Shown here piece by piece: positions 1 through 33,566 of a stretch of DNA of 64,000 nucleotides. This stretch comes from an uncultured Thermoplasmata archaeon. GTDB lineage: Archaea > Thermoplasmatota > Thermoplasmata > RBG-16-68-12. Each line of letters begins with the position of its first letter. Positions within the stretch are counted from its first letter, which is position 1. The notes under the pieces were generated by a model. That model did not search any database, was not told the origin of the DNA, and was given only the letters and a program-made list of their open reading frames with translations. The position numbers and the translations under genes were made by a program. The stretch is taken from the NCBI GenBank assembly GCA_963768855.1, contig CAVYJM010000011.1:288001-352000 (forward strand). The letters run 5' to 3'.

Positions 1-84
1 GCAGGTGCACGGGAGGAGCCGAGCGGAGCCGAGTCCCGATGGGCGGCAATCACCCGATGATGGGACAGAACCGGAATGTACCGC

Positions 85-360
85 TCAGGCGATGTAGGAA
101 TCCGTCGTCCCCTCATAGCTGTCGTACTGGACGAGGACGCCGATGTGGGCCAGGAGCTCGCGGGCCCACTCCCGTGAATACGAGTTCGGAGGCAGGTCGG
201 ACGTCGTCCCGAGCCACTCGAAGATCTCCTTGAACGCGTCCTTCTGCTCGTCCCGCGTCAGCCTCTCTCCGAGGCCGCCCACGGAGGACTCGATCCGGTT
301 CATCGCGAGCACGAACTCCTTCACTTGGGCCAAGAACTTGGCCTTCTCCTCGCGTGTCAT
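85..360 (-). CDS. hypothetical protein (91 aa, helical)
   Basis: ATG at 360 preceded by GGGAGG SD-like sequence; protein-like composition (MTREEKAKFLAQVKEF...); divergent from the Rieske gene. Confidence 0.6.
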   Translation of the reverse strand: MTREEKAKFLAQVKEFVLAMNRIESSVGGLGERLTRDEQKDAFKEIFEWLGTTSDLPPNSYSREWARELLAHIGVLVQYDSYEGTTDSYIA

Positions 361-5861: not shown

Positions 5862-6098
5862 ATGAAGGATGACACCGAGAAGATCACGCTTCGCCTGCCT
5901 AAGCGGTATCTGAAAGCGCTCGACTTCCTCGTCGAGCTCGATGACTTCCCGACCCGCTCGGAGGCAGTGCGCGCCGCGATCCGAGACCTCGTCTACGCGC
6001 GGGTCGAGCTCGTCACGGACAAGCTCAAGAGGATGCAGGAAGCCGAGAAATCGCTCGCGGACATCGAGTCGTTCAAGAAAGAGTTCCTACAGAAGTGA
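5862..6098 (+). CDS. ribbon-helix-helix (CopG/CdrS-like) transcription factor
   Basis: EKITLRLP...FPTRSEAVRAAIRDL RHH signature; upstream AT-rich TATA-like ATTATATAT near 5783. Confidence 0.85.
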   Translation: MKDDTEKITLRLPKRYLKALDFLVELDDFPTRSEAVRAAIRDLVYARVELVTDKLKRMQEAEKSLADIESFKKEFLQK

Positions 6099-6177
6099 GC
6101 AGGGTCAGAAGGGATGGATGCCGCCGGAGGGTGACTTCGCCGCCACGTCTCGACGTCACGATTACCTCCCCCCCAAC

Positions 6178-6209
6178 TGGGTGGCCATCGCGCCACCCAC
6201 TTTTCTTTT
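6178..6209 (+). terminator. hairpin + T-tract terminator after the RHH gene
   Basis: 8-bp stem TGGGTGGC/GCCACCCA (6178-6199) followed by TTTTCTTTT. Confidence 0.5.
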
Positions 6210-6317
6210 GAAGCTCGGACCTGCATGGTCTTCCGCTTCCTGAGAATCGCTCTCGAAAACCGGACTTGATAGCGGGCTCGCCACGGCTATACCCCCCGCG
6301 CCCCCGTGGGCGCCGCG

Positions 6318-6569
6318 ATGGCGACGATCACGGCCACGGAGAGCGTGGCGGAGCTCGCGCTGCCTCCCGTCTCGCTCATCTCCGAGGTCCGGCTGTTCCT
6401 CTGGCTCGCGTCCGGGATGTTCAGCGTCTCGGCCCTCGCCCTTGCCTTCCTTGACTACTGGGTCGTCGCGTCCTCGAGTGCGGCGGAGACCCACTTCGTC
6501 GCGGCGGTCGTCTCGGCGGCGCTCTTCGGCGTGGCGACCCTCTTGAAGCTCGGGCCCGGCGAGGCCTGA
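6318..6569 (+). CDS. small 2-TM membrane protein
   Basis: two hydrophobic helices; 83 aa from ATG 6318. Confidence 0.55.
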   Translation: MATITATESVAELALPPVSLISEVRLFLWLASGMFSVSALALAFLDYWVVASSSAAETHFVAAVVSAALFGVATLLKLGPGEA

Positions 6570-6630
6570 ACCGCTCCGCGTCGCGAACCCCGCCGAACGT
6601 TTATCTACGCAGGTCCCCATCGCCGCGCAT

Positions 6631-7146
6631 GTGGAGCGGGAGGTCTGGGTCCGAGCCGGGATGTTCGCGGCCATCATCGTCCTCGTGGCCCTCATCCTCG
6701 TCACGCCGAGCCTCATGGGCCATCCGTCTCCCCTCGCCCCGCCCCTCCTGATCGTCGGGGTCACGCCGGACCAGGCGAATCTCACGATTTACGTCGCGGC
6801 GTCCATCCAGGCCAACCTGTATGAAGACATTACGCTCAATGTGACGCGGCTCAACGCCGCGAACCAGAGCGTCGCCTGGACCAATGTCTCGGAGGCCTTC
6901 TCGTACGGCATCGAAATGAAGGTCCCGCTCAACCTCACCTACTGGCGGATCCATGTGTGGCTTCAGGACCAGCAGGGCAACTACTTCGAGTACAACGTGA
7001 GCCTGAGGACCTACTTGGACCGGAGCAACAGCTTCCAGCTGACCATGGCCTTCACCTCACCTGACGACAACTCGACGACGGTCGCGACCGCCGTTCCACC
7101 GGATGACTTCCGCGTCCCGATTCCACGTCGAGGGACCCTGTCATGA
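6631..7146 (+). CDS. membrane-anchored secreted protein
   Basis: N-terminal TM/signal, beta-rich ectodomain with several N-x-S/T sequons; ATGA overlap with the next gene. Confidence 0.7.
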   Translation: MEREVWVRAGMFAAIIVLVALILVTPSLMGHPSPLAPPLLIVGVTPDQANLTIYVAASIQANLYEDITLNVTRLNAANQSVAWTNVSEAFSYGIEMKVPLNLTYWRIHVWLQDQQGNYFEYNVSLRTYLDRSNSFQLTMAFTSPDDNSTTVATAVPPDDFRVPIPRRGTLS

Positions 7147-7481
7147 AGCTCTCCCGCTGGACGCTCCTGTGGCTTCTGATCATCGGCGTCCTCGTGGCCA
7201 TCTGGCTCAGCGTCTTCACCGGCTACCTGACGCCTGGCGACATCGTCGGTTCCTTCCTCGGTCTGGTCTTCGCCATGGTCGTCATCTCGGTCCTGGCAAT
7301 CATCGGGGCCGTGTTCCTGGGGATGGTCATCAGCCACCGGATCATGTCGGGCCAAGGCTTCACCCCGTTCGAGGAGGAGATGTTGAAGATGCGCCAGGAG
7401 GTCCGCGAGCTCCACGACCGGATCGACGCGATCGCCGCGAAGCTGGGAGCGGGGCCGGACCCCAAGGACCGCACGCGCTAG
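7143..7481 (+). CDS. 2-TM membrane protein with C-terminal coiled coil
   Basis: two long hydrophobic segments then EEEMLKMRQEVRELHDRIDAIAAKL; translationally coupled to the upstream gene. Confidence 0.7.
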   Translation: MKLSRWTLLWLLIIGVLVAIWLSVFTGYLTPGDIVGSFLGLVFAMVVISVLAIIGAVFLGMVISHRIMSGQGFTPFEEEMLKMRQEVRELHDRIDAIAAKLGAGPDPKDRTR

Positions 7482-8479
7482 GCGAGCCGCTCGGGGCACA
7501 CGGAGCGCCTCGAGCAATGCACGCACTTCCCGGGACGGCTATGGTTCCGGTGCGCCTCACCCTGAGCCACGCAGCGCCGCATCTCCCCCACCTTGGTCAG
7601 GACGAGCCGCTTCAGGTCCTCGTTGTACTCGATGTCGTGGCTCGCGTCCTCGTACCGGATGACCCCGTGGGGCGGTGCCTTCCCGTACTCCTCCTCGATG
7701 AGGAGGCAGTACGCCGCAATCTGCAGGATGTGGGAGAACAGGGGTCCTCGCGGGGTGCGTCCGGTCTTCACCTCGACGGGGATGTGCTGGTCCCCCTCGA
7801 GGAGGACGGCGTCCGGACGGCCCGAGAGACCGTACCGTTTTGCGACGAACAGCTTCGGCTTCTCCCGCTCGGAGTCGATGTAGACGAGGTCGCCCTCCGT
7901 CATCGCATACTTCTCGCGGGTCTCGGTCGCCTTCGCGGCGGAGCGCATCGAGCGGTAGAGGAAGACGCTGGCCCCGATGAGCCAGGCGAGCGCGAGGGCC
8001 ATGAACGCCTCGGCGAGGAGGGAGTTCACGAAGCCGGGGATGGAGACTGCGGCGACCGCGAACACCGCGGCGCCCATCGCGAACACGAGGATGACCCGTT
8101 CGGAGAGGAACCGTTCCTGCTCCGAGGAGCGGTGCTCCGCCCGGTACAAGAAGTAGACGGCGGACAAGAGCCAAATCAGAGACACGGCCGAGAGGAGGCG
8201 CGCGATCTCGATCGCGAAGTCGACCAGGAACGTCACGCCGACGATCGCGATGATCGTGGCGGCGATCGCGAAGTACATGACGCCGGCCTCGGACTCGAGC
8301 GCCGTGGTCTCATGGACCCCGATCCCTTTCAGATCCTCCGAGACGGCCGAGTGCCGCCTCTCCCCCTCCACGATCTCCGGCCCCTCCTCCGGGGCCATCC
8401 CGCGGCTCAGCCACCAGCTCAGGGGACAGTACCCGAACTTCTCCAGATCGGCGGCGGAGATGAGCTCGGAGGCGGCCAC
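7478..8479 (-). CDS. solo Cas4-like PD-(D/E)xK nuclease with Fe-S cysteines and a 4-TM insertion
   Basis: N-terminal ISAADLEKFGYCP, GLSGRPD, VEVKTG, QIAAY, C-terminal CxxCx5C; four hydrophobic helices between Cys1 and the nuclease core; no CRISPR array or cas1/cas2 nearby. Confidence 0.85.
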   Translation of the reverse strand: MAASELISAADLEKFGYCPLSWWLSRGMAPEEGPEIVEGERRHSAVSEDLKGIGVHETTALESEAGVMYFAIAATIIAIVGVTFLVDFAIEIARLLSAVSLIWLLSAVYFLYRAEHRSSEQERFLSERVILVFAMGAAVFAVAAVSIPGFVNSLLAEAFMALALAWLIGASVFLYRSMRSAAKATETREKYAMTEGDLVYIDSEREKPKLFVAKRYGLSGRPDAVLLEGDQHIPVEVKTGRTPRGPLFSHILQIAAYCLLIEEEYGKAPPHGVIRYEDASHDIEYNEDLKRLVLTKVGEMRRCVAQGEAHRNHSRPGKCVHCSRRSVCPERLA

Positions 8480-10395
8480 GTCGAATCATCCCAGCCCGGG
8501 GCTTTAGACCTTTGTCCGTCCGTCTCATTTTCCGCAGCGAGAGGGCTGACGCCACCGCGACGAACGCGTAGATCGCCGCGACGACCGCGGGGTCGTCGAT
8601 CGTACGGTCCTCCCCAAGGCCGGGCCGGCGGCCCTCCCAGTCCATGAGGAACGCGTCCTCGAACCGGGCGGCGACCTCGGGGTCCTCGAGCAGGAGCCCG
8701 ATTTCGCGGTTCTCCGTGGCGGAGCCGTGCGCCCAGTTCAGGCTCGACACGAGCGCTGCGCGACCGTCGACAACGATCCCCTTGTTGTGGACCCGTTCGA
8801 TCGAGCCGCCCGGGGTCAGGACCCGTGCCTCCAGGTCCACACCCTCCCGCATCGCCCGGTCGTTCAGGCGCGACGCGAGCTCCGCGTTCCCGGTGACCTC
8901 CGCCTCGGACGACCAGTTGCTGCCATCGAGGAGGATGCGGACCCTCACGCCGCGGTTCGCTGCGGCGAAGACCGTCTCGAGCAGGACGTTCGGTCGGTCG
9001 CCCCAGGGATCGTCCGCGTAGAAGGCTTCGACCCAGACATGGTCCCGGGCGGATGCGATGGCCTGCAGCCAGCCGTCGGTCGAGAGGGCGTCGTCCGGTC
9101 CCACGACCAGGCGGAGGGTGCGTGCGCCCGAGAGGACCGCGGGCCGCCAAGGGAGGATCGGCCCCGAGGCGGGAGTCTTTCCCGCGCTCCACCCCCGTCG
9201 CAGGGACGGAGTCGGCCCGGCTCGGGTCGAAGTCCTCCTCGAAGACCTCCCAGAGCTGCCCCGCGAGCGCGCGGTCCTCGACGATGACGGACCAGCCGCG
9301 GTTGCCCGGTTCGCCGGAGGCCGGGAACCCGGAATCCCCGAAGTTCTCCGAGCTCACGACGATCGCCTCGCCGTCCACGATGGCATACTTCGCGTGCAGG
9401 TACCGGTAGCGCTTGACCGCGTCCGCCACGGAGCTGAGGCACCGCACCTGGGCTCCGGCCGCCAGGAGATCCGACACGACGTGTCGCTCGTCCTCGTCGA
9501 TGCCTCCGACGGGTGCGCCTTCGAGGAGCACTCGGACCCGCACCCCGCTACGGGCGCGGTCCACGAGGACCGCGTCAATCGCCTCGCTCGTGAGCGTGTA
9601 CACGGCGACCTCGAGCGTCCGGTCCGCCGAGGCGAGGAACGAGAGCAGCGGGCCGCGCCCATCCTCGGGCGACAGGACGACCGCGGGGACCGCCGCGATC
9701 TCCAGGGCTGGCGGGTCGAAGGCCGACTGTCCGAGCCGGTACGCCCGGACGCCGTCCCAGTCCCCCGCCGCGTCATGATCGAGCTCCCCGTCCTCTGAGG
9801 CGGTCCGCGCGGCTACCTCGCCCTTCCCGGGCGCCGCCGCAGGCGGACCGCTCCACCCCGAGCCCGCGTACGCGGAGGCGCCGTAGACATAGGCGTCCAC
9901 GGTGGCCCCGGCCGCGTCGGCGAGGAGGACCTCGTCGCCCCCGTCCGCGAGGCGAAGGACCTCGCCCCCCATGCGCGGGGCGTCGCCCTGGTCGTACGTG
10001 AAGTCGGCGGGCCGCCGGACATCTTCCGCGTAGCTCGTCGCGTTCCGCGTCGCGACGATCCGGGTCGAGGGCGCGAGGACGGTTCCCGGGGGGAAGGTGG
10101 CGGCCGCCTCCCGGTCGGTGAGGGACCAGCCGGAGAGGTCGACCGCGGCGGGGCCAAAGTTCGCCAGCTCGACGAACTCGTCGTCGCGGGCGGCGTTCGG
10201 GTAGATGTGGGTCAGGAGCACTCCGGGCCCCAGCTCAGAGGGAAAAAGGGGGGCCGCGGGCGGTGGGGGAGGAGAGCCGGCATCCGCGCCGCGACCCGGG
10301 AGGGGGAGGCCGGACGCGAGGAGGATCGCGACGAAGAGGAGGGCCGCCGCGGACCGCGCGTCCGTCACGATGGCGGGACGCGTGGCGCGCGGCAT
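8310..10395 (-). pseudogene. secreted lamin-tail-domain + double-HKD phospholipase D-family protein, split by an apparent 1-nt frameshift
   Basis: frame A has signal peptide, LTD (EFVELANFGPAAVDLSGWSLTD) and HAKYAIVD; frame B has HNKGIVVD...SSLNW...NREIG and a C-terminal TM; the frame switch lies at about 9125-9210. May be a sequencing error rather than a true pseudogene. Confidence 0.8.
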
Positions 10396-10533
10396 AAGGC
10401 GTGGGCGTACACGCACGCTACGTTCCTCCCTGGGAATCGGGGCGTTCCTCCCTGAAAAAAAATCAGGTGGGATAACCGTGACCACTTGGTCTTTTATCCC
10501 GGCGAGGAACGGAATGACCCGAGGCGCGTGGGA

Positions 10534-13500
10534 GTGAACTCGCGAGCATCAGCCGTCGCACTCGTGATCCTGGGGCTCCTGCTCCTGGCCCCGCTCCTCG
10601 CCCCGTGGGCCGCGCAATCCCCGGCCCTCCATCCTCGAGCCGGGGTGGCGTCCGGGATTGGACCGTCCGCACTCCCTTCGCCGGGCCCGCAGCCCCTCGC
10701 GGCGACCGTGTCCCTCGCGTTGACCACGTCCACGCGGGCCGCAGATCCGAAGGACCCAGCCCGGTTCACGGTCTACTTCAATAACACGGGCGACCAGGCC
10801 GCCCCGAGCGTCTGGATCAATTTCACGGCGCCCGGCGGCCTCCTCTTCCAGGGAGACACCGCCGCGGGGAACGCCTCGGGCTATCCCCGCTACCGCTTCG
10901 ACAACCTCGGGCTGGGCCTCCACGAGTTCCAGATCAGCTTCATCATCGCGATCGGGACAGCGCCGGGAAGCCTCCTGACCCTGTCCGCGACGATGGTGTA
11001 CTCCGACGGGACGGGCGCCCAGCGGTTCGTCGGACCCGCCACCGCATCGGTCCTCGTTGGGGTCGTGACGAAGCAGCTGTACCTCGGCTGGTCCGCATCC
11101 ACCCCGGGCGTGCTGAGCCCGGTGCCTCCCACGGGAGGGCTCCTCTCGCAGGGGACCTTCACCCTGACGAAGGGCGGACCCGCGGTGAACTTCGACCTCG
11201 TCCCGGCCCTCGCCCGGCCGTTCCGCGCGCTCAACGTGACCGCGGTCCTCTACGTCCAGCCGGTCTCCACGCCCACGAACCTGGACATGAACCTCACCCT
11301 GATCGACGTGAACGGGGCCGCCACGAACGCCGTGAAGAGCGTCGAGCAGGTCAACGCTGTCACGGGCTCGGGCTACTGGACTCTCTTCTACACGTTCCCC
11401 TCCATGAACTACCTCTTCTCCGCGGGCCACCAGATCCGCCTCCAGGTGCTGAACACCGCGGCCAGCGGGCAGAGCGCGCTCCTCGCGACGAACGCGACGG
11501 CGGAGCCCTCCCGGATCAGCGTGCAGACGACGACCTACGTGACGGTCGACTCCCTCGCCCCACCTGTGAGCCCGCCGACGTACCTCTCCCCGAAGTCCTC
11601 CCTCGTGGTCACCGCGAACGTCTCCGACCCCTTCGGCAGCCGCGAGATCGTCGACGCGCGCCTGAACCTGACCGGACCGTCCGGCGCGATCGTCACGTGG
11701 CTCTCCCTCCTCCCCGCCGCGGCCGTGGACCCCTCGAGCCCGTCCGCCTGGAAGCTGTTCCGGTACACTCGGGCCCCGTCCCTCGCGAACGGCACGTACT
11801 CGATCGAGCTCACAGCGATCGAGCGGAACGGCGTGGTCGACGTCGCGGCCGGTTCCGCGACCGTGCGCGCCCCCGCCTTCGCCTTCCAGAAGGTCTCCAG
11901 CGTCACGCAGGCGAAGTCCGGAGTCAAGTTCACGTACTCGCTCTGGTACAACAACACGGGCACGGGGCCCGCGGGCACCGTCTGGGTGAACGACACGCTG
12001 CCCAGCCAGGTGAACTTCCTGTCGACTGTGCCGACCTTCACCTCGTCGAGCGGGAGCACGTACCGCTGGGTCCTTCCGTCCGTGGCGATCGGGGCCCACG
12101 TGATCCAGATGAATGTCCAGGTCAAGGGTGGCGTCTCGGGGGTGGGCTACATCCGCAACTGGGCCAGCCTCAACTTCTCGGACGAACACGGCTTCCTGTG
12201 GCCCGCGCAGATCAGCCACGCGGACGTCGTGCTCAACGGCCCCTTCCTCACGCTCGGCGTGACGAGCGCGCCGGCGGGCTTCGTGCACTCGAACCAGCCG
12301 GTCGTGTATACGATCAACCTGACGAACTCGGGGGACGCGGCGAACACGATCTGGCTCAACGTCACCCTCCCCTCCGGGCTCGCCTACGTTGGGGACACTT
12401 CCGCTTCGCTCGGTGGCACGCGGACCGTGGTCGGGAACACCATCCGCTTCATCTTCTCGAACATGCCGTCCGGGAGCGGCACTCCCGTGACGTGGGCCTT
12501 CACGATGACCGCTAGGGCGGCCGCGGGTCTCCCCTGGGGCACGATGCTGACGAGCCACCTGGCGCTGAACGACACGAGCGCGACGAACTTGCTCATGCCG
12601 GAGCAGAGCTTGGACTTCCCGCTGACCGTCGCGTCGCCGTCGATCTCCGCCGGTACGGTGTCCTTCGGCGTGCCGGCGGCGGCCCCGCTCATCCCTCTCT
12701 CCGTCTACGTGAACTTCACGAACTCGGGCAACGAGCCCGCGAGTCCGGTCTGGATCAACCTGACCCTGGACCCGTTCCTCCGCTTCTCCAGCTCCCCCTT
12801 GCCCTCCTCGGCCACGAACCGGACCGTCCATCTCACGATGTCGAACGCGGCCACGGGTGCAGACAGCGCGTTGCTGTACGTGGTCGCCCTCGTCAACGTC
12901 ACGGACCGGCAGGTGCTCTCTGTGGGCGGCGGGCTGGCCGGCTCGGACGGGTTCGGCAACCCCGTCGCTCCCGTCTCCCTGACGAGCGGATCCGTGGCCG
13001 TGGCTCTGCCGCGACTCAATTTCACCCTCTCGCCCGGAGCGACGACCGCGGAGGCGGGGAGCGTCATCCGGTTCACGATCACGGGAGGCAACACGGGAAG
13101 CGGCGCCGCCTCGGCGGTCTGGCTGAACCTCACCCTCCCGTCGACCCTCGACTACCTATCCGACTCCCTCGGCGCGGGGCCCGTGGTCCTGGGCTCGAGC
13201 TACTCGTGGCACTGGACTACCTACGCGCCCGGCGTGCACACGTACTTCCTAAACCTCACCGCGGGGGGCTCGGCGCTGGACCGCACGAGCGCCGATCTCA
13301 CGTTCTCCGTTCAGGCGTTCGACCTCAGCAGGCGGCCGCAACCCGTCGCCACGTTCGGGGGCCGGGTGGGCTTCCTGTCGCCGATGTGGCTCCTGTCCAT
13401 CACGCCGAATCGCAACACCACCCTTCCGGGCGGGACGTGCAACTACACGGTGCGCGTCGAGAACGTCGGCTCGACCGCCGCCCACTTCCTCTGGTTGACC

Positions 13501-14268
13501 CTCAATCTCGACGCAAACCTCGTCTTGATCACGCACACCGCGCCCGTCCCGGCCGCGGGCACCACGACGTTGAACTGGACGTTCCAGGACGTGCAACCGG
13601 GACAGGTCATCGCGTTCAACGTGCTCGTCAAGGTGGCGGAAGGGACGTCCGCGAACACGCCGATCGCCGAGTTCATCGGCGCGCGCTACACGAACAGCGT
13701 GGGCACGGTCCTCGGCTACATGCGCTCCTCCTCGGTCCAGATCCAGGTCGGGGCGGACCTCCTGCCCCTTCTCTTCATCTTGGTCGGCGGATCCCTAGGC
13801 GGCGCGGCGGTCGTGGTCGTCGTGTACCGCCGCTACCGCGTGCGCATCGAGGACGTCTTCCTGATTTCCCGCAACGGGATTCTGCTCTCCCACCTTACGC
13901 CCACCCCTCCCGCGGGCAAGGACGAGGACGTGCTCAGCGGCATGCTGACCGCCGTCCAGGACTTCGTCCAGGACGCGTTCACGTACGGGGAGCACCGCGA
14001 GCTCCACCAGCTCGAGTTCGGCGACTACCATGTGCTGATCGAGCGCGGGAAGTCCGTCTACCTCGCAGTCGTCTACCAGGGGCGCGACTCGGGCCTCATC
14101 CGCAAGCGGGTCCGGGCCGTCCTGGACCGGATCGAATCCTCCTACGGGGATGTCTTCACCCGGTGGGAGGGCGACATGCAGCAGGTCGAGGGGACCCGGG
14201 AGATGCTCCGGAAGGGCTTCGTCGAGGTCGACCACCCGTGGTCCCTCTTGAAGCCTAAGGCGCCGTGA
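10534..14268 (+). CDS. large surface protein: signal peptide, six DUF11-like repeats, TM anchor, cytoplasmic longin/roadblock-like domain
   Basis: repeated (F/Y)T-x-x-x-x-NTG-x-x-x-A-x-x-VW-x-N-x-TLP units; TM LLFILVGGSLGGAAVVVVVY; tail IEDVFLISRNGILL...DEDVLSGMLTAVQDFVQDAF; GTG start. Confidence 0.85.
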   Translation: MNSRASAVALVILGLLLLAPLLAPWAAQSPALHPRAGVASGIGPSALPSPGPQPLAATVSLALTTSTRAADPKDPARFTVYFNNTGDQAAPSVWINFTAPGGLLFQGDTAAGNASGYPRYRFDNLGLGLHEFQISFIIAIGTAPGSLLTLSATMVYSDGTGAQRFVGPATASVLVGVVTKQLYLGWSASTPGVLSPVPPTGGLLSQGTFTLTKGGPAVNFDLVPALARPFRALNVTAVLYVQPVSTPTNLDMNLTLIDVNGAATNAVKSVEQVNAVTGSGYWTLFYTFPSMNYLFSAGHQIRLQVLNTAASGQSALLATNATAEPSRISVQTTTYVTVDSLAPPVSPPTYLSPKSSLVVTANVSDPFGSREIVDARLNLTGPSGAIVTWLSLLPAAAVDPSSPSAWKLFRYTRAPSLANGTYSIELTAIERNGVVDVAAGSATVRAPAFAFQKVSSVTQAKSGVKFTYSLWYNNTGTGPAGTVWVNDTLPSQVNFLSTVPTFTSSSGSTYRWVLPSVAIGAHVIQMNVQVKGGVSGVGYIRNWASLNFSDEHGFLWPAQISHADVVLNGPFLTLGVTSAPAGFVHSNQPVVYTINLTNSGDAANTIWLNVTLPSGLAYVGDTSASLGGTRTVVGNTIRFIFSNMPSGSGTPVTWAFTMTARAAAGLPWGTMLTSHLALNDTSATNLLMPEQSLDFPLTVASPSISAGTVSFGVPAAAPLIPLSVYVNFTNSGNEPASPVWINLTLDPFLRFSSSPLPSSATNRTVHLTMSNAATGADSALLYVVALVNVTDRQVLSVGGGLAGSDGFGNPVAPVSLTSGSVAVALPRLNFTLSPGATTAEAGSVIRFTITGGNTGSGAASAVWLNLTLPSTLDYLSDSLGAGPVVLGSSYSWHWTTYAPGVHTYFLNLTAGGSALDRTSADLTFSVQAFDLSRRPQPVATFGGRVGFLSPMWLLSITPNRNTTLPGGTCNYTVRVENVGSTAAHFLWLTLNLDANLVLITHTAPVPAAGTTTLNWTFQDVQPGQVIAFNVLVKVAEGTSANTPIAEFIGARYTNSVGTVLGYMRSSSVQIQVGADLLPLLFILVGGSLGGAAVVVVVYRRYRVRIEDVFLISRNGILLSHLTPTPPAGKDEDVLSGMLTAVQDFVQDAFTYGEHRELHQLEFGDYHVLIERGKSVYLAVVYQGRDSGLIRKRVRAVLDRIESSYGDVFTRWEGDMQQVEGTREMLRKGFVEVDHPWSLLKPKAP

Positions 14269-33065: not shown

Positions 33066-33566
33066 ATGCAGTCCGGTCCTCTCGTTCGGCCCACGCTCCC
33101 ATTCCTGGCCAAGGGCGGCTTCCGCATCCTTCTCCTGAGGACCCTCGAGGAGAAGCCGATGTACGGGTACGAGGTCATGAAGGAGCTGGAGAACCGCTTC
33201 CAGGGGTTCTACCGTCCAAGCGCCGGTGCGGTCTATCCGGCCCTTCGTTCCCTCCAGCGAGAGGGTCTGGTCGCGGTGAGCGGGTCGGAGCGGCGCAAGA
33301 CATACCGCGTCACGGCGAAGGGAAAAGCCTCCATTCGAAGCCACCGGGCGGAGATGGAGACGCACTTCCGGTCCCTCCAGGCAGCGGTCGGTCCGGAGCG
33401 CGCGGCCCTCCTGCGAGAGCTCCGCGACACGGGGAAGCTCCTCGCCATGAACCTCCGCTCCTTGACGCCGCGGCAGGCCGTCGAACTGCGTTCCGCCGTC
33501 GCGGAGATGCGCAAGCGAATCGCGACGATCCTGGGAGAATCAAAAGGGGAGGATTTCCATGAGTGA
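33066..33566 (+). CDS. PadR family transcriptional regulator
   Basis: ILLLRTLEEKPMYGYEVMKEL...PSAGAVYPALRSLQREGLV...RKTYRVTAKG. Confidence 0.93.
   Translation: MQSGPLVRPTLPFLAKGGFRILLLRTLEEKPMYGYEVMKELENRFQGFYRPSAGAVYPALRSLQREGLVAVSGSERRKTYRVTAKGKASIRSHRAEMETHFRSLQAAVGPERAALLRELRDTGKLLAMNLRSLTPRQAVELRSAVAEMRKRIATILGESKGEDFHE

Follow-up and report, generated by a model that had tools for sequence, protein, structure and literature searches.

We describe here a gene whose product appears to be a nuclease of the Cas4 family built into the cytoplasmic membrane. The gene lies in a 64,000-nucleotide stretch of DNA (the window) from an uncultured Thermoplasmata archaeon, positions 288,001 to 352,000 of contig CAVYJM010000011.1 in assembly GCA_963768855.1. 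With a probability that we put at about three in four, its product of 333 residues is an active solo (non-CRISPR) Cas4-family nuclease of the PD-(D/E)XK type that carries a 4Fe-4S cluster and is integrated in the membrane. Whereas Cas4 and its relatives have been known as soluble proteins, the catalytic and iron-sulfur (Fe-S) machinery of Cas4 would in this case be a permanent part of the membrane. This predicted design is kept across most of one archaeal phylum, where it varies by whole transmembrane (TM) hairpins to give forms with two, four or eight helices, and it also occurs as a two-gene form in Chloroflexota.

Cas4 motifs and iron-sulfur ligands

The protein scored above the cut-offs of three nuclease profiles, TIGR00372 (cas4; 83.7 bits, cut-off 65), PF01930 (31.8 bits, cut-off 22.7) and PF12705 (45.5 bits, cut-off 22). 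All three matches span residues ~180–329, and Pfam gave no further domain beyond these nuclease matches. The profile scores bear out the initial annotation of the window, which had proposed a Cas4-like nuclease and had listed as its motifs the Cys in FGYCP, the PD in GRPD, EVK, QxxxY and CVHCSRRSVC. All of these were present, and across 39 aligned relatives, with identities as low as 25%, they vary little or not at all. Tyr17, Cys18, Gly39, Asp223, Lys238, Gln253, Cys319, Cys322 and Cys328 are invariant in this alignment, and His43, Glu236 and Tyr257 are nearly invariant; Glu236 and Tyr257 are invariant in a set of 19 sequences.

The same positions pair with known Cas4 residues in sequence alignments. 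Asp223 and Glu236-Val-Lys238 pair with the D and the D-x-K of 7mi4_A, the Cas4-Cas1 fusion of G. sulfurreducens, and C319-x2-C322-x5-C328 pairs with its Cys triad. At the other end of the chain, FGYC18 ... EGERRH43 pairs with FQFC ... EGQHLH at the N-terminus of the type I-C Cas4 8d3l_I. The protein therefore combines curated profile scores above cut-off, RecB-type motifs and the four-Cys pattern of one N-terminal Cys plus C-x2-C-x5-C.

A duplicated hairpin inserted in the nuclease domain

An insert of ~115 residues, made up of two homologous TM hairpins, separates the N-terminal helices that carry Cys1 and His43 from the β-sheet core and so splits the Cas4 domain in two. The initial annotation had located the insert between Cys1 and the catalytic core. 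This position was confirmed, with the refinement that the insert also follows the conserved His43 helix. Four hydrophobic segments (residues ~66–85, 95–111, 128–147 and 157–174) reach Kyte-Doolittle maxima of 1.9–2.7 over 19 residues and coincide with long helices in the structure model, in agreement with the four TM helices that had been claimed. Charged residues are almost absent from TM1 and TM2 throughout the 39 sequences.

Gap-free alignment of residues 62–113 with residues 125–176 gave a score of 76 (z = 8.6), which none of 2000 composition-preserving shuffles reached. The repeat signal recurred in most of the relatives tested, while three of eight fell below a z of 3. On this sequence evidence the insert consists of a predicted two-helix hairpin duplicated in tandem, as the initial annotation had it. 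The loop charges follow the positive-inside rule. The mean number of Lys plus Arg residues is 4.1 in the N-terminal flank, 3.0 in loop 2–3 and 4.4 in the C-terminal flank, whereas loops 1–2 and 3–4 have only 0.85 and 0.59. This pattern implies an N-in/C-in topology with both halves of the nuclease domain in the cytoplasm, and an Fe-S enzyme likewise requires this placement.

The insert is less conserved than the core, with a mean majority fraction of 0.43 against 0.65, and Trp103, Trp166 and Leu167 are its only positions above 85%. Because strong conservation is limited to one Trp per hairpin, we consider the insert to be mainly an anchor; its low conservation is more in keeping with an anchor than with a channel or sensor.

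Structure model

An AlphaFold2 (AF2) model built from a 39-row alignment had a mean predicted local distance difference test score (pLDDT) of 84.7 and a predicted template modelling score (pTM) of 0.76. It places helices at residues 34–82, 89–117, 120–145 and 153–190 ahead of the β-sheet core. With VIA-align, model residues 1..333 superposed on the Cas4 domain of 7mi4_A (residues 5..200) with a Z score of 18.9 over 178 residues at 2.6 Å, and on 8d3l_I (2..203) with a Z score of 18.3. Approximately 178 of the ~208 residues outside the insert, taken from both ends of the chain, thus fit a single intact Cas4 domain. The initial annotation had called for a structure model to judge whether the Fe-S staple can close around the insert. 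In the model, the N- and C-terminal halves superpose together on solved Cas4 and Cys18 falls at the position of the first cluster ligand, which supports closure indirectly. Foldseek and VIA-align also matched the model to Exo5, AdnAB and Dna2, with Z scores of 10–14. Matches to the insert alone (V-ATPase a, YiiP, NCX and HAMP; Z 8–9) were rejected as generic helical bundles rather than signs of kinship. By every sequence and fold criterion tested, the protein is a member of the Cas4 family.

In the mechanism that we propose, the two homologous hairpins would be inserted between the Cys1/His43 helices and the catalytic sheet and, because the number of helices is even, both halves of the domain would remain on the cytoplasmic face. 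Together the halves would form a single Cas4 domain of normal fold, in which Cys18 and the triad of Cys319, Cys322 and Cys328 act as the staple. The long helices 34–82 and 153–190 would run from this core into the bilayer and keep the domain close to the inner membrane surface. Since the anchoring helices are continuous with the His43 helix and with the strand leading to Asp223, the active site should lie near the bilayer. By analogy with the Cas4 family, the protein would bind a 4Fe-4S cluster and cleave or resect DNA in a Mn/Mg-dependent manner, and its architecture would restrict this action to DNA at the inner face of the membrane. Solo-Cas4 biology would gain from this a concrete spatial constraint, namely action on DNA at the membrane.

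A split form in Chloroflexota

About a third of the best 150 representatives from a search for relatives of the protein (see below) are proteins of 170–185 residues that lack Cys1 and in which a single TM helix at the N-terminus is followed by the Cas4 core with its Cys triad. Named members of this form belong to Chloroflexota (Thermoflexales, Anaerolineae), and Chloroflexota proteins match the window protein with E-values of 1e-25 to 1e-30. Among the contexts examined (six loci), the gene directly upstream encodes 80–90 residues in four of five, at spacings from a 3-nt gap to a 25-nt overlap; in L091 the N-terminal piece does not adjoin the C-terminal piece. The upstream product reads ...ASELG.YSFC..WWL...H... 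and then ends in a single C-terminal TM helix, and so supplies the Cys1, the His and one TM segment.

The break point in Chloroflexota lies between the two helices of one hairpin; therefore, two chains that are each anchored in the membrane must come together again to form the catalytic domain. As judged from these sequences, the split form is the strongest comparative evidence that the predicted hairpin is a true membrane hairpin and that the halves would be reunited. The expectation in the initial annotation that an even number of TM helices keeps both halves on one side is supported by the positive-inside loops, by the series of two, four and eight helices described below and by this split form. 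The pair is also a naturally occurring model for the assembly of an Fe-S cluster domain out of two pieces that are each tethered to the membrane.

Hairpin number and distribution

A word-indexed search returned more than 1000 homologues, most of them 330–335 residues long, with names such as "Cas4", "Dna2/Cas4 domain" and "CRISPR-associated exonuclease Cas4" and with an origin in metagenome-assembled genomes (MAGs) of Thermoplasmata or "Methanobacteriota". When 1.84 billion cluster representatives were searched exhaustively, 1299 clusters matched at E ≤ 1e-3 and 86 at the stricter E ≤ 1e-30. Among the best 150 of the 1299, the full-length forms had two TM helices (~260–285 residues), four (~325–335 residues) or eight (~500–600 residues), and none had an odd number or six. 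Two seeming exceptions became eight and two at a slightly lower hydropathy threshold. A quick tree of the core domain set an archaeal group with two, four or eight helices apart from a second group. Its branch supports are modest, and it suggests that the number of hairpins changed several times. One eight-helix relative, the metagenomic protein P0196 (635 residues), carries a C-terminal TRAM domain behind the Cas4 core (PF01938, E 1.5e-15).

Relatives are encoded in 504 species genomes of the GTDB set, and the best 80 of these are all Thermoplasmatota-type MAGs except one labelled Aenigmatarchaeota. A look-up in the ESM Atlas again returned only Thermoplasmatota "Cas4 family" clusters. In an even sample of Thermoplasmatota, matches were found in 283 of 401 genomes, in 176 of the 261 high-quality genomes and in 122 of 162 genera. 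The membrane Cas4 is nearly absent from some families (for example, 2 of 48 genomes of family f2 have a match). Many genomes of several families have two matches, and open reading frames of ~280–310 and ~500 residues are among them. These may be two-helix and eight-helix paralogues that share a genome; if so, the family may have diversified in function.

Gene neighborhood

The coordinates of the features are collected in Table 1, and the counts in this section cover 80 related loci. In 52 of these, with Cas4 identities of 47–91%, the gene directly upstream on the same strand encodes a surface protein with an LTD domain and a double-HKD domain of the PLD family (LTD-PLD). A C-terminal TM anchor ends every syntenic PLD orthologue. 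An LTD protein likewise precedes the eight-helix variant in L003, and the sub-cut-off matches of the PLD domain include the nucleases NucT and DrmC. In the window, the open frame of the LTD-PLD gene overlaps the coding region of Cas4 by 170 nt in a different reading frame (8310–8479). Of the ~23 loci in the close clade, nearly all keep an overlap of 161–170 nt, and one has 119 nt. In other clades the spacing lies between a 24-nt gap and a 64-nt overlap, and a single PLD-syntenic locus has a 145-nt gap. The overlapping PLD tail is rich in Arg and Gly and may be tolerated read-on past the TM anchor.

The LTD-PLD gene of the window is broken into two frames; L002 has an intact orthologue of 674 residues. 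Base 9178 of the window is absent from contigs of three runs from three studies, and its loss would restore a single LTD-PLD frame. The break reflects an error in the assembly or else a frameshift peculiar to the strain. A complex prediction of the PLD C-terminal anchor and tail (alignment residues 10–75) with the whole membrane Cas4 returned a score of 0.00 and "no answer", which is evidence neither way. Divergent from the PLD gene, positions 10486–14268 (+) encode a predicted surface protein of 1260 residues. It has numerous N-x-S/T sites, and its C-terminal TM helix is accompanied by a cytoplasmic tail domain.

On the other side, the convergent gene for a 112-residue protein with two TM helices is conserved downstream of Cas4. 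This protein has no Pfam or NCBIfam match, and a 39%-identical copy adjoins the eight-helix variant in L003. It belongs to a conserved string at 5862–7481 (+), convergent to Cas4, that holds a 78-residue ribbon-helix-helix (RHH, CopG-type) gene and genes for small membrane proteins (87, 171 and 112 residues). In the window and its nearest relatives, a class-V aminotransferase gene is likewise convergent to Cas4, beside the small membrane-protein genes and the RHH gene.

Table 1. Positions of the features discussed; coordinates are those of the window unless a locus or contig is named.
Feature	Position	Strand	Description	Basis
Predicted membrane-embedded solo Cas4-family nuclease gene	7478..8479	-	333 residues, GTG start, stop codon 7478-7480	Open reading frame and translation; TIGR00372, PF01930 and PF12705 above cut-offs; >1000 homologues of equal length
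N-terminal module, residues 1-60	8300..8479	-	Cys18 (first Fe-S ligand, FGYCP) and G39-x3-H43 helix (putative metal-ligand His)	Column conservation, alignment to 8d3l_I, model superposition
Predicted TM hairpin repeat 1, residues 62-113	8141..8296	-	TM1 ~66-85, TM2 ~95-111, conserved W103, ends ...LIWLLSAVYFLYR	Hydropathy, AF2 helices, internal repeat z 8.6, W103 at least 85%
Predicted TM hairpin repeat 2, residues 125-176	7952..8107	-	TM3 ~128-147, TM4 ~157-174, conserved W166-L167, ends ...LAWLIGASVFLYR	Hydropathy, AF2 helices, internal repeat, conservation
Catalytic PD-(D/E)XK core and C-terminal Cys triad, residues 196-333	7481..7894	-	D223, E236-x-K238, Q253xxxY257, H310-R-N-H313, C319-x2-C322-x5-C328, ERLA tail	Pfam/NCBIfam, alignment to 7mi4_A and 8d3l_I, invariant columns, Foldseek and VIA-align
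Surface LTD and double-HKD (PLD-family) protein gene, C-terminal TM anchor	8310..10485	-	Upstream, same strand; two frames, 8419..10485 and 8310..9104	Pfam LTD and two PLDc_2
Two-TM protein with cytoplasmic helix, 112 residues	7143..7481	+	Convergent; stop overlaps Cas4 stop	Conserved neighbor; downstream in 60 of 80 related loci
Split pairs	L085 3081-3323 and 3327-3860; L087 5727-6531; L089 270-1081; L090 2-771			
TPD observations	L063 5146-5961; G000:C6:334409-335158		TPD clade; TPD of the window's genome	

A second Thermoplasmata clade has a gene with a TPD domain (PF14811) 3–62 nt upstream of the membrane Cas4, and GlmS and a GlmU-like gene downstream. The genome of the window holds a TPD orthologue (55% identity) on another contig, and three genomes of the TPD-adjacent clade hold an LTD-PLD orthologue elsewhere. 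Because these orthologues are kept away from Cas4, adjacency changes while all three genes persist. Distant forms adjoin rpl15e, subtilase, POR, SIR2 or RHH-FtsZ. We therefore rejected a fixed two-gene system of PLD and Cas4 as a general rule, since TPD, GlmS/GlmU, IF-2B, MetRS, rpl15e, POR or SIR2 adjoin elsewhere; the PLD-Cas4 operon is confined to one large clade. The annotated neighborhoods of relatives contain no helicase gene. Overall, the membrane Cas4 is a vertically inherited core gene amid housekeeping genes, outside defense islands and mobile elements.

Elsewhere in the window, ARAGORN called an 84-nt tRNA-Gly(GCC) at 33421–33504 (-) that scores below the Rfam tRNA gathering threshold; it may be spurious or represent an archaeal tRNA with an intron.

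Alternative explanations

Two alternatives concern the nature of the protein itself. The database name "CRISPR-associated exonuclease Cas4" and the score above the TIGR00372 equivalog cut-off would suit a Cas4 that truly serves CRISPR adaptation by trimming prespacers for Cas1-Cas2, a reading that we nevertheless regard as extremely improbable. We found no match to Cas1 in the 2.87-Mb, 93.6%-complete genome by a whole-genome profile scan that, with PF01930, missed even the present Cas4 gene and hence is insensitive. Because of this insensitivity for the Cas4 family we added a direct repeat scan, which detected no CRISPR-like array in the genome. The annotated neighborhoods of relatives contain no cas gene either, and the remaining related loci share the same non-cas gene order. 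The cas1-cas2 genes and array that stand alongside a CRISPR-associated Cas4 were thus not found here, and the gene is encoded outside any cas operon, as a solo-Cas4 is. The label "CRISPR-associated Cas4" is misleading in hundreds of genomes. It is also very improbable, though slightly less so, that the insert is a soluble helical bundle or an amphipathic surface element rather than four membrane-spanning helices. Such a reading could draw on the generic helical bundles that the insert matches at Z 8–9 and on the fact that the TM helices were assigned from hydropathy and AF2 only. On the other hand, hydropathy windows of 17 to 19 residues reach 1.9–2.7, TM1 and TM2 are nearly free of charge in the 39 sequences, the loop charges obey the positive-inside rule, the number of helices is strictly even, and each polypeptide of the split form has one hydrophobic helix at its end.

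As for the role of the enzyme, we tentatively prefer, at somewhat less than even odds, the trimming or degradation of linear DNA that crosses or touches the membrane, whether imported from the environment or invading. This role is preferred because of the recurrent operon with a surface phosphodiesterase and because of the tether itself. The initial annotation had suggested DNA processing during uptake, virus entry or conjugation; among the neighbors, the surface LTD-PLD protein alone hints at such a role, and it adjoins Cas4 in a single large clade. Membrane-proximal chromosome maintenance, in which a housekeeping nuclease would resect or trim DNA ends or replication and segregation intermediates, is unlikely in absolute terms and yet nearly as likely as the preferred role. 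It would account for the core-gene-like distribution, the housekeeping neighborhoods, the tight operon with the TPD protein in one clade and the repair nucleases Exo5, AdnAB and Dna2 among the nearest folds. However, repair leaves the polytopic anchor unexplained, the gene is missing from whole families (46 of the 48 genomes of f2) and no helicase partner was found. The recurrent operon could also be taken as a two-sided unit for DNA uptake or salvage, in which the surface LTD-PLD protein cuts extracellular DNA and the membrane Cas4 processes the incoming strand. We consider this improbable. The frequent upstream position of LTD-PLD, a spacing between a 24-nt gap and a 170-nt overlap in nearly all PLD loci, the TM anchors of the PLD orthologues, the LTD protein ahead of the eight-helix variant and the NucT and DrmC matches speak for it. 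Yet other clades lack the adjacency, though they keep an LTD-PLD orthologue elsewhere; distant relatives adjoin rpl15e, POR, SIR2 and FtsZ; the PLD type could be a nuclease or a lipid enzyme; the PLD gene is frameshifted in the window; and no channel component was identified. Innate defense at entry, with the tethered nuclease destroying viral or plasmid DNA at its free ends once it has been injected, seems slightly more doubtful still. Cas4-family nucleases are found in defense contexts and act on DNA ends (PMC5704561), and an enzyme at the inner membrane face, as fold match and topology would have it, would meet incoming DNA first. Defense genes, however, are typically patchy and horizontally mobile, whereas this near-core gene has a stable synteny outside defense islands and mobile elements, with no methylase or other self/non-self partner nearby.

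Several observations weigh against the explanation that we favor as a whole. The TM helices were called by hydropathy and AF2 only. TRAM domains are usually RNA-binding, and the TRAM fusion in P0196 supports a nucleic-acid substrate, which for this family may not be DNA alone. Gene context does not constrain the role, as LTD-PLD and TPD were found in the genomes checked of both clades, adjacent to Cas4 or not. Finally, the characterized Solo-Cas4 of M. mazei is reported to prefer supercoiled double-stranded DNA (PMC12501428), so that end-threading need not apply to the membrane Cas4.

A more speculative reading, and a long shot, is that the membrane Cas4 forms the cytoplasmic half of a previously undescribed archaeal machine for the uptake or salvage of environmental DNA. 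LTD-PLD would act as the ecto-nuclease outside, the TM bundle (eight helices or split halves) would form or dock at a passage, and the Fe-S nuclease would thread and process the incoming strand on the inner side. If true, this machine would be a functional analogue of bacterial EndA/ComEC. More generally, a functional link to surface nucleases, if proven, would point to a pathway by which archaea deal with DNA that is extracellular or invades the cell.

Comparison with known systems

The protein shares with CRISPR-associated Cas4 (TIGR00372/PF01930; 8d3l, 7mi4, SSO0001 4ic1 and Pcal_0546 4r5q) the PD-(D/E)XK core with D...E-x-K and QxxxY, the His of the N-terminal helix, the C ... C-x2-C-x5-C ligands and a fold that matches over both halves (Z 18.9 and 18.3). 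It differs from those soluble proteins of ~200 residues in its membrane-built form, with an insert of ~115 residues in two hairpins dividing the domain, in a family-specific H-R-N-H before the Cys triad and an ERLA tail, and in the lack of cas1/cas2 or a CRISPR context.

Solo-Cas4 proteins (Hudaiberdiev et al. 2017, PMC5704561; M. mazei, PMC12501428) are likewise Cas4 homologues encoded away from cas operons that keep the Fe-S ligands. Those described are soluble single domains of ~200 residues, in contrast to the polytopic chain of 333 residues with four inserted TM helices found here. The M. mazei protein is reported to form a higher oligomeric complex of an apparent 318 kDa and was purified as a SUMO fusion, that is, it was handled as a soluble protein (PMC12501428). 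The phylogenomic survey of Cas4 (PMC5704561) contains neither "transmembrane" nor "Thermoplasma", and its lone "membrane" is a gene-name abbreviation in a figure legend. Full-text literature searches found no published description of a TM-inserted Cas4; the JCVI-syn3.0 paper was rejected as a precedent, since it concerns a different Cas4-DEDD fusion.

Exo5, the nuclease domains of AddB/AdnAB and Dna2 have the same nuclease fold (Z 10–14) and an Fe-S cluster that staples N- and C-terminal elements together. For these enzymes a helicase module or partner is expected, whereas none is found near the membrane Cas4, whose sequence is closest to Cas4 and which contains the membrane insert.

The Chloroflexota pair, from Anaerolineae and Thermoflexales MAGs, shares with the window protein the (H/N)R(N/S)H motif, C-x2-C-x5-C, ERLA, the N-terminal ...Y.FC..WWL...H module and the predicted membrane anchoring. 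It differs in being bacterial and in dividing the enzyme between two polypeptides with one TM helix each, where the archaeal protein is one chain with four.

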